NCBI GenBank assembly: GCA_042218325.1
Contig: JBDGRE010000006.1
Span: 1-56,532 of the forward strand
Length of the DNA stretch: 56,532 bases
DNA from: Candidatus Nanohaloarchaea archaeon
Lineage (GTDB): Archaea; Nanohalarchaeota; Nanosalinia; Nanosalinales; Nanosalinaceae
Direction: 5' to 3'
Made by a program: the position numbers and the translations under genes. Under the pieces are notes generated by a model, which made no database searches, was not told where the DNA came from, and saw nothing but the letters and a program-made list of their open reading frames with translations. Positions 11,986 to 37,958 of this stretch are shown one piece after another. Every line of letters begins with the position of its first letter. Position 1 is the first letter of the stretch.

Positions 11986-12129
11986 TGCGGCGTCCGGGAT
12001 TTGAACCCGGGTCACCGGCTTGCTTCACCAACGAAGCTCACATCCGTTCGCTTCTGGGTCCTCGTTCTCCCAGAAGGGGAGAACTTGAGGTTTGGAAGGC
12101 CGGGGTCTTAGCCACTGGACCAACGCCGC
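11986..12129 (-). tRNA. tRNA-Gly(TCC) with a 72-nt intron at position 37/38; CCA not encoded
   Basis: Acceptor GCGGCGT/ACGCCGC, anticodon arm CCGGC-CTTCCA|A-GCCGG, T arm CCGGG-TTCAAAT-CCCGG. Confidence 0.95.
12021..12092 (-). other. Archaeal BHB tRNA intron
   Basis: Central helix CTTC/GAAG, two 3-nt CAA bulges, outer helix ACC/GGT. Confidence 0.92.
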
Positions 12130-16613: not shown

Positions 16614-16826
16614 ATGCAGACAGAAGATATACTTGCTACCCTGGATGACTGCGTGGACGCGATCTCCACAGAGTTCTACGAGAGCGACGGCTACCTCCAC
16701 GTCAGCGTGAGAACGGATTACGACGCGTTAGAGGATGTCAACAAGGCCAGTCTTGAACTCGAGTCCTATGTCATGTCGGTTCTGAACGGTGGCGAAAGGT
16801 ACAGGCTCGCGTTCAGGCGGGACTAG
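16614..16826 (+). CDS. Small orphan protein
   Basis: 70-aa acidic ORF with TTTATA upstream. Confidence 0.55.
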   Translation: MQTEDILATLDDCVDAISTEFYESDGYLHVSVRTDYDALEDVNKASLELESYVMSVLNGGERYRLAFRRD

Positions 16827-17173
16827 CTCTCAAGGGCTTCCTGAACGGTTTTCAGTCCGAGAACCGCGCACTTGACCCGCATCGGCGACACATCGATTCC
16901 GAGTTTCTCCACCATCCATTCGCGGTCGAGCTCTTTCACCTGATCGACGTCCATTCCTTCCAGCTCTTCGCTGAGCACGGACATCGCGGCGGTCGATATG
17001 GCGCAGCCGTCTGTCTCGTGTCTCACCTGATTCACTTTCCCTTTCTCGACCTCCACGTATACGTGAGTGTGGTCGCCGCAGCTCGGGTTCTCGCCCTCCG
17101 CGTCAAAAGCATCTTCCAGCCTCCCGGAGTTCCGCGGGTTCCTGTAGTGGTCGAGTATCTCCTCCCTGTACAT
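16823..17173 (-). CDS. sufU: SufU/IscU-like protein
   Basis: YREEILDHY.NP.N, NPSCGD, GCAIS, RVKCA. Confidence 0.93.
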   Translation of the reverse strand: MYREEILDHYRNPRNSGRLEDAFDAEGENPSCGDHTHVYVEVEKGKVNQVRHETDGCAISTAAMSVLSEELEGMDVDQVKELDREWMVEKLGIDVSPMRVKCAVLGLKTVQEALES

Positions 17174-17255
17174 CAGTCGAAAACACCCTGGTGTTCGGAG
17201 ATTCCCTCTGGAATCTTCTGCAAGAAAATCCGTCCCACGGATTTTCGTTTTCTCG
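17171..17255. repeat. Multi-hairpin repeat core, copy 1
   Basis: 77/85 nt identical to 31520-31604; three internal hairpins. Confidence 0.95.
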
Positions 17256-17286
17256 GCTGATAGAGAAAATCTGCGATTTTCGTCAT
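17173..17286 (-). CDS. Repeat-encoded bridging mini-ORF (37 aa)
   Basis: MTKIADFLYQPRKRKSVGRIFLQKIPEGISEHQGVFD; TGATG overlaps with sufS stop and sufU start. Confidence 0.65.
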   Translation of the reverse strand: MTKIADFLYQPRKRKSVGRIFLQKIPEGISEHQGVFD

Positions 17287-18479
17287 CAGTCGAACACCTC
17301 CCTGACCTTTTCCAGCGCGAGCAGGAACTTTTCCACGTCCTCTTCCGTGTTGTAGAGGTACGGCGAGGCCCGGGCAGTGGAGGAGACGCCGAGCGACTCC
17401 ATCAGCGGCTGGGCGCAGTGATGGCCCGCTCTTATAGCGACGCCCTCCCTGTTGAGTATCTCGGAGATATCGTGCGGGTGCGCAGTCTCCATAGTGAAGG
17501 ACATCAGCGACGCGTCGCGGGGTGAGTAGACGGTTACACCTTCCATCTCTTCGAGGCCCTCTATCATCCGCGCGGTGAGCTGCTCGTCGTGCTCCCGGAT
17601 GTTCTCCATACCATGATTTTCGAGGTAGTCGATGGCCGCGGCGAGGCCGACGGCGCTGGAGACGTTCGGTGTCCCGGCCTCGAACTTCGCCGGCAGTTCC
17701 TCCCACTCCACCGAGTCGTGCTTCACGGAACGTATCATGCCGCCGCCGACCTGGTACGGCTCCATCTCCTCAAGCAGTTCTCTCCGGCCGTACAGCACGC
17801 CGATCCCGTCGGGTCCGAGCATCTTGTGGCCGGAGAAAGCCAGGAAGTCCGCGCCGAGCCCCTTCACGTCGACCGGCATCCTGGGAACAGACTGGGCGCC
17901 GTCGACCATGACGTACGCGTCGTACTCGTGCGCTACCTTCGTGATACCTTTAAGCGGGTTGCGGGCGCCGAACACGTTGGAAATCTGCGGGACCGTTACC
18001 AGCCCGACATCTTCGTCCATCATACCGCGGAACGCTTCCATGTCGATGCGGCCGTTCTCGTGCGGGATGAACTCGATGTCGAGGTCGTCCCGTTCGGCCT
18101 TCCGGCGCCACGGCAGCTGCTCGGAGTGGTGTGAGAACTCGGGTACAAGGATGCGCCCTTCAAGCTCCAGGGAGGAGGCCACAAGGTTTATCGACTCGGT
18201 GGTGTTGCGGGTGAAAACCGTTTCCCCGGGAGTTGCGCCGATGAAGTCCGCGACCGTCTTCCTCGATTCACGGTACCGCTCAGTCGACCTGCGGGCGAGT
18301 TCGTGTAGCGACCTACCGGGATTTGCGTTGTCCTGCTCGTAGTAATCCTTCACCGCCTCGATGACCTGCTCCGGTTTCTGGGTGGTCGCCGCATTGTCGA
18401 GGTAGACCAGTTCCCCGGAATTGACCTTCTGCTGCAGAGCTGGAAAATCCTTCCTGAGCTCCCCTGCGTCGAGAGACAT
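17286..18479 (-). CDS. sufS: Cysteine desulfurase SufS
   Basis: YLDNAATTQKP, DGAQ, SGHKMLGP, RAGHHCAQP. Confidence 0.96.
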   Translation of the reverse strand: MSLDAGELRKDFPALQQKVNSGELVYLDNAATTQKPEQVIEAVKDYYEQDNANPGRSLHELARRSTERYRESRKTVADFIGATPGETVFTRNTTESINLVASSLELEGRILVPEFSHHSEQLPWRRKAERDDLDIEFIPHENGRIDMEAFRGMMDEDVGLVTVPQISNVFGARNPLKGITKVAHEYDAYVMVDGAQSVPRMPVDVKGLGADFLAFSGHKMLGPDGIGVLYGRRELLEEMEPYQVGGGMIRSVKHDSVEWEELPAKFEAGTPNVSSAVGLAAAIDYLENHGMENIREHDEQLTARMIEGLEEMEGVTVYSPRDASLMSFTMETAHPHDISEILNREGVAIRAGHHCAQPLMESLGVSSTARASPYLYNTEEDVEKFLLALEKVREVFD

Positions 18480-20710: not shown

Positions 20711-22108
20711 CTACCCGAGGCTTCCTTCCATCTCGAGCTGTATAAGCCGGTTCAGCTCCACCGCGTACTCCAGCGGCAACTCCTTCGCGATAGGCTCTAT
20801 GAAGCCGCGGACAATCATCTCCTGCGCCTCTTCCTCCTCGATTCCACGGGACATAAGGTAGTAGATGGCCTCGTCCGAGAGCTTTCCGACAGTGGCCTCG
20901 TGGGCGATGTCGACATCATCCTCCCTTATCTCGACGAAAGGTTCTGTGTCCGAGACGGATTCGTCGTCGAACATCAGCGCGTCGCACTCCACACTGGAAC
21001 TCGCGTTCTCCGCGCCCTCCCCGACCCTGAGAAGGCCGCGGTAGTTGGTGCGGCCTCCGTTCTGCGAAATCGACTTCGACTCGATAGTGCTGGAGGTCTC
21101 CGGCGCGTTGTGTATCACTTTCGCGCCGGTGTCGATGTTCTGGCCCTCACCGGCGTACGCGATGGATATATGGGAGGCCTTCGCGCACTCGCCGTTGAGG
21201 TGCGAGCTCGGGTAGAGCATCGTGACCTTGCTGCCCATAGAGCCGGAGACCCATTCCATGGTCCCTTTCTCCTCCACGAGGGCGCGCTTGGTGTTGAGAT
21301 TGTATGTGTTCTTGCTCCAGTTCTGCACCGTCGAGTACTGGACATGCGCGCCTTCACCGACGTAGACCTCGACGCAGCCGGAGTGGAGATTGTGTCTCGA
21401 ATAGGTAGGCGCGGAGCAGCCCTCGATGTAGTGGACCCTCGAGTTCTCCTCAGCGATTATCAGGGTGTGCTCGAACTGGCCCATGCCCTTCGAGTTCATA
21501 CGGAAGTACGCCTGGACCGGTATCTCGACTTCGACGCCCTCCGGAACGTAGACGAACGAACCTCCGGACCAGACCGCGCCGTGGAGAGCGGCGAACTTGT
21601 TGTCCTGAGGAGGTACACACCGGGTCATGAAGTGCTCTCGCACCAGCTTGGGATGCTCCTGCACGGCCTCATCCATGTCACAGAAGATGACACCCTTCTC
21701 CTCCCATTCCTCCTTCATGTTCTGGTAGACGACTTCCGATTCGTACTGGGCGCCGACACCGGAAAGAGCCTCGCGCTCCGCCTCCGGTATACCCAGCCGG
21801 TCGAACGTTTCCTTGATATCGTCCGGTATCTCGTCCCAGTCATCGCTCTTGGTATCATCCGCCTTCAGGTACGGCGTTATCTCGTCGAAATCAAGCTCGG
21901 AAAGGTCCGGACCCCAATCCGGCATCTCGCGTCTTTCAAAGTGGCGAAACGCCTTCAATCGCCGTTTTAACATCCATTCCGGCTCGTCCTTCTTCTCCGA
22001 GATGTCGCGTATAAGCTGCTCGGAGAGGCCTTTGTCGGCACGGTAGACCGCCCTGTCCTCGTTGGCGTGGTCGAACCTTTCGCGGTTTTTGGATATTTCC
22101 TCAGACAT
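20711..22108 (-). CDS. sufB: SufB
   Basis: GAQYESE, GQFEHTLI, YIEGCSAP, YSTVQNW, ELPLEYAVEL. Confidence 0.96.
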   Translation of the reverse strand: MSEEISKNRERFDHANEDRAVYRADKGLSEQLIRDISEKKDEPEWMLKRRLKAFRHFERREMPDWGPDLSELDFDEITPYLKADDTKSDDWDEIPDDIKETFDRLGIPEAEREALSGVGAQYESEVVYQNMKEEWEEKGVIFCDMDEAVQEHPKLVREHFMTRCVPPQDNKFAALHGAVWSGGSFVYVPEGVEVEIPVQAYFRMNSKGMGQFEHTLIIAEENSRVHYIEGCSAPTYSRHNLHSGCVEVYVGEGAHVQYSTVQNWSKNTYNLNTKRALVEEKGTMEWVSGSMGSKVTMLYPSSHLNGECAKASHISIAYAGEGQNIDTGAKVIHNAPETSSTIESKSISQNGGRTNYRGLLRVGEGAENASSSVECDALMFDDESVSDTEPFVEIREDDVDIAHEATVGKLSDEAIYYLMSRGIEEEEAQEMIVRGFIEPIAKELPLEYAVELNRLIQLEMEGSLG

Positions 22109-31369: not shown

Positions 31370-31522
31370 TTACTCCTGCTTGTCGGTGTAGCGGTGGCCG
31401 CGGTCGTTCTCGTAGTTCTTCTCGCACTTGCCCGAGCAGAAATGCAGCTTCTCGCCGGACTGGCGTACCAGCATCTTGCCCTCGGTCTTCCCTATCGCGT
31501 CGCCGCAGTAGTCGCACTCCAT
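31370..31522 (-). CDS. rpl24e: 50S ribosomal protein L24e
   Basis: Own translation MECDYCGDAI..GKMLVR..G..LHFCSGKCEKN. Confidence 0.92.
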   Translation of the reverse strand: MECDYCGDAIGKTEGKMLVRQSGEKLHFCSGKCEKNYENDRGHRYTDKQE

Positions 31523-31604
31523 CAGTCGAAAACACCTCCGTGTTCGAAGATTCCAGAGGGAATCTTCTGCAAGAAAATCCGTCCCACGGATTTTCGTTTT
31601 CTCG
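31520..31604. repeat. Multi-hairpin repeat core, copy 2
   Basis: 77/85 nt identical to 17171-17255. Confidence 0.95.
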
Positions 31605-31632
31605 AGTTCCTGAATTCCATGAATTCAGTCAT
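31522..31632 (-). CDS. Repeat-encoded bridging mini-ORF (36 aa)
   Basis: MTEFMEFRNSRKRKSVGRIFLQKIPSGIFEHGGVFD; ATGA overlap with rps28e stop, TGATG overlap with rpl24e start. Confidence 0.65.
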   Translation of the reverse strand: MTEFMEFRNSRKRKSVGRIFLQKIPSGIFEHGGVFD

Positions 31633-31805
31633 CCTTCCATCTCCGTCTCCTTGATGTGGACGACGTCGTCCTCACGGACCGGGCCCCTGACGTTGCGGAC
31701 GAGGATCTTTCCTTCCTCGCTGCCTTCCACGATGCGGCACCGGACTTTCCGGACGCCTCGCGGGCCCTGGTCTCCTATCACTTCGACGATTTTGGCGAGG
31801 ACCAT
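31629..31805 (-). CDS. rps28e: 30S ribosomal protein S28e
   Basis: Own translation MVLAKIVEVIG..VRCRIVEG..RNVRGPVREDD; rpl7ae-rps28e-rpl24e synteny. Confidence 0.93.
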   Translation of the reverse strand: MVLAKIVEVIGDQGPRGVRKVRCRIVEGSEEGKILVRNVRGPVREDDVVHIKETEMEG

Positions 31806-37723: not shown

Positions 37724-37891
37724 CTAGTTATCCTTGACGGTGATAGGCAGCTTGCCTTCCTCAAGCTCTCGCTTCGCGATATCTCTCGGGTCCTCGTCAC
37801 CGGCCTCTACGAAAACCGGCGCTCCCATCGCTATCTGGAGGCTCCTGGCGCCTATCATCCTTGCTCTCTCGTAACGCGTGTAGTTGGTCAT
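37724..37891 (-). CDS. rpoK: RNA polymerase subunit K (Rpo6)
   Basis: Own translation [27 protein letters not shown]. Confidence 0.95.
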
Positions 37892-37958
37892 TCTAAAATC
37901 ACCTCCTGATTTTCTGTATGCCCAGAAACTCTTTGAGTTTCGCTCATGTATCTTTACC

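Follow-up and report, generated by a model that had tools for sequence, protein, structure and literature searches.

Small open reading frames built of hairpins at gene junctions of nanohaloarchaea probably form a family of translated intercistronic cassettes

Mycobacterial interspersed repetitive units (MIRUs) are direct tandem repeats that are used as variable-number tandem-repeat markers. According to a 2025 review, MIRUs insert at start codons and carry an internal open reading frame (ORF), which is coupled to the gene with a spacing of -4 nt and limits the harm of the insertion (PMC12548453). The same review names termination and re-initiation in archaea as under-studied. Repetitive extragenic palindromic sequences (REPs) located within 15 nt of a stop codon have been reported to affect translation (PMC12306157), and a further report describes four unclassified non-coding RNAs with a hairpin-hinge-hairpin-tail organization, which may bear on the elements described here (PMC10266531). 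Here, we analyse a 56,532-nucleotide stretch of DNA from a Candidatus Nanohaloarchaea archaeon (contig JBDGRE010000006.1, assembly GCA_042218325.1), referred to as the window, in which the genes sufS and sufU are separated by an insert that consists of hairpins and contains a mini-ORF. The insert is composite and probably belongs to a lineage-wide family of intercistronic hairpin cassettes that are translated. An earlier note on the window held this arrangement to be undescribed; the MIRUs, as presented in the review, are a precedent with the same logic. In the papers covered by our literature search, no earlier description of such cassettes in nanohaloarchaea or DPANN archaea was found.

The source genome (G000) has a size of 1.07 Mb and is 96% complete, and all genes at the locus are located on the minus strand. 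The stop codon TGA of sufS (17288-17286) shares its final A with the ATG (17286-17284) of the mini-ORF, the TGA of which (17175-17173) shares its final A with the ATG of sufU (17173-17171). The 37-codon frame with TGATG at the sufS stop and the sufU start, as given in the earlier note, is borne out by the sequence and by the Pfam identities of the two genes, and the four hairpins that make up the mini-ORF are present at the positions claimed for them (Table 1). The proposed outer stem CTGAT/ATCAG (17289-17285 with 17261-17257) encloses no more than the first hairpin; in the predicted fold, the outermost pairing joins the 3' end of sufS, GGUGUUCG, to CGAACACC of the insert. The element TTCGACTGATG was correctly placed at both ends of the insert, and the deletion of one unit leaves a direct TGATG junction of sufS and sufU. 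It has three occurrences in the 1.07-Mb genome, the third at 31520-31530, all on the minus strand. The direct repeat is better described as approximately 17 nt long with a 2-nt indel, GGTGTT(TT)CGACTGATG, and the native Shine-Dalgarno sequence (SD) and stop are both contained in the terminal sufS codons GAGGTGTTCGACTGA. The frame of the mini-ORF extends open upstream into sufS (17173..17706 in the ORF listing); the start at 17286 was chosen for its overlap with the sufS stop rather than as the earliest start available.

The position and frame of such inserts were analysed at eight types of gene junction in up to 30 genomes of the same family, which provided 240 locus-junction pairs. Ten pairs with a missing flank or a gap extrapolating below -60 were dropped. 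The 230 informative junctions comprise 173 with gaps of at most 25 nt, 50 with inserts of 26-170 nt, and seven that are longer and mostly hold another gene. By relay chain we mean an open frame whose start can be reached from the upstream stop and whose own stop lies at the downstream start; up to a few such steps were allowed. The test set consisted of the 49 unmasked inserts, with the masked insert of genome G006 left out. Of the 49 inserts, 45 contain a relay chain, compared with 12 of 49 when the insert is reverse-complemented, which preserves the stems and composition. In 200 shuffles, the mean was 15.9 +/- 3.0 and the maximum 24 of 49. Inserts at the S28e/L24e junction occur in nine of 30 genomes, and all nine contain a relay frame. 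Furthermore, in pairs of evidently orthologous cassettes, each member terminates on the downstream start in its own frame despite the indels between them (G023 and G007 at L1/L10, G000 and G001 at S28e/L24e). The earlier note had named copies random in position and frame as the outcome that would speak against its reading; the opposite was found, with such inserts located where the stop and start of co-oriented genes meet.

The excess of relay chains over the reverse complement and the retention of the frame despite indels argue against a cis-acting element of the operon mRNA that works untranslated, as a processing site, a REP-like exonuclease barrier, or a binding site of a conserved protein, and whose frame is a by-product of stop-poor stems made of A/T runs. 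We consider such an element unlikely. It also lacks a match to an Rfam family: with Rfam 15, no hit reached the gathering score at the element, where the best match is at chance level (20 bits versus a gathering score of 55, E 0.29), and the sole match in the window is a tRNA.

The source genome contains 475 perfect hairpins with stems of at least 7 bp, about twice the 229-251 found in shuffles, and the arms of 37 of its 409 distinct hairpins start with GAAA. The exact hairpin GAAAATC-NNN-GATTTTC, which we call H1, is present at 11 sites, and hairpin-built mini-ORFs of 18-36 codons were found between co-oriented genes at the inspected H1 sites. The junctions with cassettes include L11/L1, L2/S19, L3/L4, uL24/S4e, S3/next gene, S13/S4, PAC2/rpoK, and several others; the names of genes outside the window (L2, S19, L3, L4, S13, S4, S11, L11, L1, L10, uL24, S4e, and S3) were read from translations and operon order. 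The mini-ORFs of G000 start on the upstream stop or a few bases after it, and end with ATGA, GTGA, TAATG, or TGATG on the downstream start. Several cassettes have ATGA or GTGA overlaps, the type with a spacing of -4 nt, and others have TGATG, TAATG, or a gap of 1-8 nt.

The basic unit of the family is approximately 46-70 nt long, corresponding to about 13-20 codons, and is organized as a start on or just past the upstream stop, H1, a short linker, a last hairpin (H2), and a stop at the downstream start. The consensus, derived from 22 of 34 cassettes of 44-70 nt (alignment A1, with the most divergent left out), reads start, H1, a 7-10-nt linker, GAAAACAC-GAG-GTGTTTTC, CGA, and stop/start. The stop codon of the unit overlaps or abuts the downstream start, and the 3' arm of H2 provides the GTG or GGTG of the SD GGAGGTG. 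The inserts bring an open frame, an SD, and a stop/start overlap with them, which agrees with what had been claimed for the sufS/sufU insert. In copy 1, as we call this insert, the 3' arm of H2 is the GGTG of a degenerate SD (AGGGTG) for sufU. Units in tandem were seen occasionally, at sufS/sufU of G023 and at C5:21221-21364 of G000.

The same junctions exist without cassettes. In G001, from the same genus, sufS and sufU overlap directly through TAGTG, and the gap is at most 25 nt in 18 of 26 informative relatives. Other hairpin inserts at sufS/sufU are found in G046, G023 (two tandem mini-ORFs), and G006 (masked), and the site is empty in G012, a congener of G046. The masked insert (L028, G006:C4) is a run of N over approximately 116 nt with GAGGTTTTCGACTGATG on both flanks. 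The presence or absence of cassettes varies within genera g1, g12, and g18. Additionally, contigs from the same lake bypass all of the second insert of the window (copy 2), since the joins 31521/31629 and 31522/31631 leave only 7 or 5 intervening letters; therefore, empty alleles co-exist. Empty sites, suggested by the earlier note as a check, are thus found both in the same genus and in the same lake. At S13/S4 of G055, the native ATG is apparently duplicated.

Table 1. Positions of the inserts, their hairpins and repeats, and the flanking genes in the window
Feature	Position	Strand	Basis
sufS, cysteine desulfurase	17286..18479	-	Pfam Aminotran_5, E 8e-132; ORF listing
sufU, NifU-like scaffold, downstream coupled gene	16823..17173	-	Pfam NifU_N, E 1.6e-24
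Relay mini-ORF, copy 1: 37 codons + stop, TGATG at both ends	17173..17286	-	
H1 hairpin GAAAATC-GCA-GATTTTC, family signature	17265..17281	-	
Hairpin GAAAATCCGT-ggg-ACGGATTTTC	17224..17246	-	
Hairpin GATTCC-agag-GGAATC	17200..17215	-	
H2, last hairpin AACACC-AG-GGTGTT	17182..17195	-	
Direct repeat TTCGACTGATG, upstream copy, native junction	17284..17294	-	
Direct repeat TTCGACTGATG, downstream copy, insert end including sufU start	17171..17181	-	
Nested 54-nt (18-codon) two-hairpin unit, copy 1 (delimited by analogy); hairpins 17224-17246, 17199-17216	17196..17249	-	
Relay mini-ORF, copy 2: 36 codons, ATGA overlap at start, TGATG at end	31522..31632	-	
S28e, upstream of copy 2	31629..31805	-	Pfam
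L24e, downstream of copy 2	31370..31522	-	Pfam
First hairpin of copy 2, CTGAATTC-ATG-GAATTCAG, common to G001 and G055	31610..31628	-	
Nested 54-nt unit in copy 2	31545..31598	-	Pairwise alignment, junction table
Third cassette: 19-codon mini-ORF between PAC2-family gene and rpoK	37888..37947	-	

The 85-nt core of copy 1 recurs once in the genome, at 31520-31604, with eight mismatches, seven of which fall within hairpin loops or next to them; one of the loops is present in inverted form (AGAG versus CTCT). A 43-nt exact stretch occurs twice, compared with zero occurrences in 100 shuffles. The recurrence in the same frame and at the same type of junction stands as it was first noted, but the core is not a single repeat unit: it is a nested 54-nt unit together with the 3' end of a cassette. 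A pairwise alignment demonstrates that G001 has the matching outer cassette at S28e/L24e without the 54 nt, and the segment missing there is exactly the two-hairpin unit common to copies 1 and 2. Because this difference between G000 and G001 matches the unit in copy 1, we read copy 1 as a basic cassette with a nested 18-codon insertion, which is placed inside the 5' arm of H2; its limits were set by analogy with the 54-nt difference at S28e/L24e. Copies 1 and 2 carry the same nested unit in two different outer cassettes. Related copies of the nested unit are present in G014, G007, G002, and G023. In G002, it takes the form of a 38-codon mini-ORF that separates two suf genes, and in G014 and G007 it adjoins tRNA genes. 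The third cassette of the window ends in a stop that overlaps with the start of rpoK (ATGA), and it has GGAGG in its last hairpin loop.

The peptides encoded by the mini-ORFs are not conserved, because H1 is read in all three frames, giving KI.DF in ten cassettes, RKSKIF in four, and ENHRFS in one. The conserved entity is the nucleic acid rather than the peptide. It is therefore very improbable that the mini-ORFs are genes for small proteins or regulatory nascent peptides, even though RKRKSVGRIFLQKIP is common to both copies and many cassettes start with M(T)KI.DF. The inverted loop and the compensatory changes in the stems alter residues, the lengths range from 10 to 37 residues, and the presence of the cassettes within genera is sporadic. 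A Pfam search assigned the mini-ORF of copy 1 to no family.

Of 70 genomes of the phylum, 49 contain the exact H1 pattern, with up to 15 sites per genome, and none contains the reversed control. A composite pattern of H1, GAAAAC, and GGTG has 27 matches among approximately 185,000 species. Nineteen of these are in records titled Nanohaloarchaea, Nanosalina, or Nanohalobium, and the others are three in records named 'Asbonarchaeaceae' (one) or 'uncultured archaeon' (two), three in Woesearchaeota/Nanoarchaeota, and two in bacteria. Among the 22 matches of the halo-type, 21 lie between same-strand ORFs of at least 150 nt, which supports the claim that the inserts target stop/start junctions. Viral contigs contained zero matches to the composite pattern. 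Three other DPANN genomes (Woesearchaeota/Nanoarchaeota; G070, G071, and G072) have 23, 11, and 35 exact H1 hairpins, with none in the control, and junction-type mini-ORFs as well. In G070 (loci L207, L211, L215, L220; L217; L222), a near-identical string of four hairpins is present in at least four copies, and the junction-type mini-ORFs start with MKI.DFQ.

Pairing in the H1 helix amounts to 94%. Five of its seven pairs have changed on both sides, and the helix was independently predicted by RNAalifold. The half-sites co-vary, as in GAAGATC/GATCTTC, GAAACTC/GAGTTTC, and GAAATTC/GAATTTC. The 3-nt loops of the H1-type first hairpins, read in gene sense, are mostly purine-N-A (AAA six, AGA six, GAA two, and ACA two, among others). 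The retention of the H1 sequence in most genomes of the phylum and in the three Woesearchaeota/Nanoarchaeota genomes, as well as the compensatory helix changes, would also be expected of the untranslated RNA element. H1 is, in addition, a perfect inverted repeat with fixed spacing and conserved sequence, as would suit an element acting at the DNA level, in which the 7-3-7 palindromes are operators of a dimeric protein, promoter or terminator parts, or recombination sites, and the hairpins and the frame are secondary. The occurrence of H1 near integrase-type duplicated 3' ends of tRNA genes in a genome with seven tyrosine recombinase genes, and an antisense strand that folds at least equally well, point in the same direction. 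However, the half-sites change jointly and keep their pairing, a behaviour that fits a hairpin but not a protein operator, the loop bias is asymmetric between the strands, and the orientation of the cassettes follows the genes, so that we regard a function at the DNA level as improbable.

The last hairpin was assessed in each sequence separately; the MAFFT alignment is not structure-consistent at H2. It has a fixed CAC...GTG, around which at least eight covarying versions of the stem were seen. This GTG forms the 3' portion of the SD GGAGGTG, a sequence that matches the 3' end of 16S rRNA, GGATCACCTCC. In 27 of 49 inserts, compared with seven of 173 short junctions, a local hairpin takes up at least 3 nt of the SD in its 3' arm. 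A C/D-box reading of CTGATGA...CTGA was considered for the insert and dropped: relative to the box consensus, the spacing is far too long, and internal boxes are absent.

Taken from sequence, the organization of the cassettes suggests how they could function. A ribosome that finishes sufS would re-initiate on the overlapping ATG, unwind H1, the nested hairpins, and H2 while translating the mini-ORF, and terminate on the sufU start. The partly masked SD, once released from H2, could then support initiation at sufU. The insert would thus leave translational coupling intact and avoid polarity, and the encoded peptide itself would be irrelevant. Such a mechanism would combine re-initiation and RNA unfolding, which the review treats as two textbook models of coupling (PMC12548453).

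The copying of the cassettes is indicated by their presence and absence within genera, the nested insertion, the flanking direct repeats, and a linker sub-type, ...TTAACAGAAGCACAGAGGTGCTTCG..., that is found at different junction types in several genera. The direct repeats vary in length, which may speak against a classical transposon, with 11-17 nt at copy 1, approximately 21 nt at C11:24440, and 3 nt elsewhere, and the ends of the insert share CGAAAA/TTTTCG, as do all hairpins of the family. We infer that gain, loss, and nesting of the cassettes may occur within short evolutionary times, as in a repeat family that places copies of itself at start-codon junctions without a transposase in G000. 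Such a family may be selfish, domesticated, or both. As a tentative extension, about which we are doubtful, H1 (GAAAATC-RNA-GATTTTC, 17 nt) might be the recognition element of a conserved DPANN factor or of the ribosome. The cassettes would then be lineage-wide, domesticated setters of ribosome passage between the cistrons of ribosomal-protein and other operons. They would spread in a transposase-free, start-codon-targeted manner, as an archaeal counterpart of MIRUs across phyla with a hairpin grammar of their own. Introns of tRNA genes were considered as a source of the modules and rejected, since their hairpins differ from those of the cassettes.

Several observations weigh against the interpretation of the inserts as mobile, translated cassettes. 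Four of the 49 inserts lack a relay chain. The cassettes are stop-poor, with all three sense frames open in 15 of 49 and two frames in 20 of 49, and thus part of their openness is compositional, as the untranslated RNA element would have it. Because the consensus of the family includes the start and the stop/start overlap, its copies inherit them, and the related genomes are not independent of each other. The SD-masking hairpin is limited to the 27 inserts mentioned above, and H2 of copy 1 is weak, with 6 bp, a 2-nt loop, and a degenerate SD. The fold z-scores of the two copies are -2.56 and -3.05 in sense and -5.45 and -4.48 in antisense orientation; because the antisense strand folds more stably, the energies give no sign of a structure in the sense RNA. 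Cassettes at one junction in different genera have a similarity of 0.84-0.89, compared with 0.73-0.74 for the coding flanks, which may reflect constraint or recent transfer, but points to a constrained function rather than a neutral passenger and is likewise in keeping with an untranslated RNA element. REPs are mobilised by REP-associated tyrosine (RAYT, Y1) transposases, and a mobiliser of this HUH/TnpA type had been suggested for the inserts. The search supported neither this nor a non-autonomous transposon (MITE) with a cognate transposase: Y1_Tnp, TnpB (PF07282), RVT_1, and DDE_Tnp_1 have zero matches each in the 96% complete G000, a result confined to these families, as other transposase families were not searched. 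Y1_Tnp is limited to four of 70 genomes of the phylum. It is present in all three other DPANN genomes, and H1 was not seen as a constant end of the Y1_Tnp genes in these or in G051 and G039.

The direct repeats and the restored sufS-TGATG-sufU junction could also be explained by an archaeal bulge-helix-bulge intron that is spliced out of the mRNA. Terminal direct repeats would permit clean excision, the ends of the insert pair in the predicted fold, and tRNA introns are called in 25 of the 42 tRNA genes of G000. Nevertheless, such an intron is hardly likely: the motif of two 3-nt bulges and a 4-bp helix is not in the predicted folds of either copy, which is a weak test based on prediction only, the tRNA introns of G000 are devoid of cassette sequences, and the frame is kept although a spliced element would not need one. 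The tRNA introns called by aragorn are 12-143 nt long, and some calls are doubtful (tRNA-Stop and one tRNA-Lys). In the window, tRNA-Gly(TCC) at 11986-12129 has a 72-nt intron according to the same program.

Hairpins of the H1 type are also located beside tRNA genes, where translation is unexpected and an untranslated RNA element would be at home. Immediately downstream of tRNA-Met and tRNA-Ala of G000 (C1:107150-107216 and C31:77310-77400; L002 and L010), there is a 46-66-nt insert with H1 in antisense orientation; behind it, 22-23 nt of the tRNA 3' end are exactly duplicated. The tRNA-adjacent layout of G014 and G007 contains the nested 54-nt two-hairpin unit. Some of the seven tyrosine recombinase genes of G000 are positioned beside tRNA genes. 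Another motif, GTGATGAAACTTCCAGAAGTTTC, and its near variant are present in G000 at C1:96011-96032, C15:9696-9713, and C31:77476-77493, at a ribosomal-protein junction and next to tRNA genes; the motif could represent a further module or a small RNA. The genes at C1:94906-96012 and C2:3090-3827 of G000, read as uS3 and uL24, have a common C-terminal tail, …KNK.RTTFIDWLE…, which we take to be unusual for either protein. In the window, the summed contig depth at 21300-21840 is 10-30 times that of the neighbouring bins in all four runs, which suggests a stretch common to many other organisms, or a repeat.

Should the cassettes be translated, they would illustrate how repeats are tolerated or exploited in the most tightly coupled operons of small, gene-dense archaeal genomes, here those of ribosomal proteins, an RNA polymerase subunit, and iron-sulfur cluster assembly. 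They would also be natural test cases for archaeal termination and re-initiation. For annotation, frames of 13-37 codons at such junctions would not count as orphan proteins. Like MIRUs in mycobacteria, the cassettes could serve as presence/absence markers for the typing of salt-lake strains, and they could provide ready-made relay parts for the design of archaeal operons. It is also of interest in itself that one hairpin is conserved between phyla with no matching transposase alongside, and the cassettes merit attention as a family-wide, testable phenomenon.

By analogy, the mycobacterial MIRU is the closest precedent for the cassettes. The review describes MIRUs as short repeats between co-oriented genes with a coupled internal ORF (PMC12548453), and the cassettes resemble them at the level of this description. 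In the genomes analysed here, a co-oriented intercistronic repeat is present at 50 of 230 junctions, and the internal ORF meets the flanking stop and start in 45 of 49 inserts. The cassettes differ from MIRUs in their archaeal host (nanohaloarchaea and other DPANN instead of mycobacteria), their construction as strings of perfect short hairpins with an SD-masking last hairpin and nested insertions, the only occasional presence of tandem units, and a hairpin that is conserved in more than one phylum with no transposase. Other systems have single traits in common with the cassettes. The REPs and bacterial interspersed mosaic elements of enterobacteria are repeated hairpins between the cistrons of operons, with effects on mRNA stability reported for REPs (PMC12306157). 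However, REPs are extragenic and untranslated, whereas the hairpins of the cassettes are contained in an open frame, and G000 and 66 of 70 genomes of the phylum lack Y1_Tnp. The Rickettsia palindromic elements are likewise palindromic repeats that survive by keeping frames open (PMC10969869), but they insert into host genes without a shift of frame and end up within the host protein, whereas the cassettes form a separate mini-ORF between genes. In RNA-unfolding coupling, as summarized in the review for MS2 coat-lysis and E. coli rpmI-rplT, upstream translation opens a hairpin that covers the ribosome-binding site (PMC12548453). The sequences of the cassettes suggest a similar process, except that the upstream frame would be a dedicated mini-ORF supplied by the repeat and not the neighbouring gene. 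Synthetic bicistronic designs are described there as using a short leader ORF to bring the ribosome to the start and remove the dependence on local structure (PMC12548453). Such designs are engineered, whereas the cassettes are natural, repeated, and evolving.

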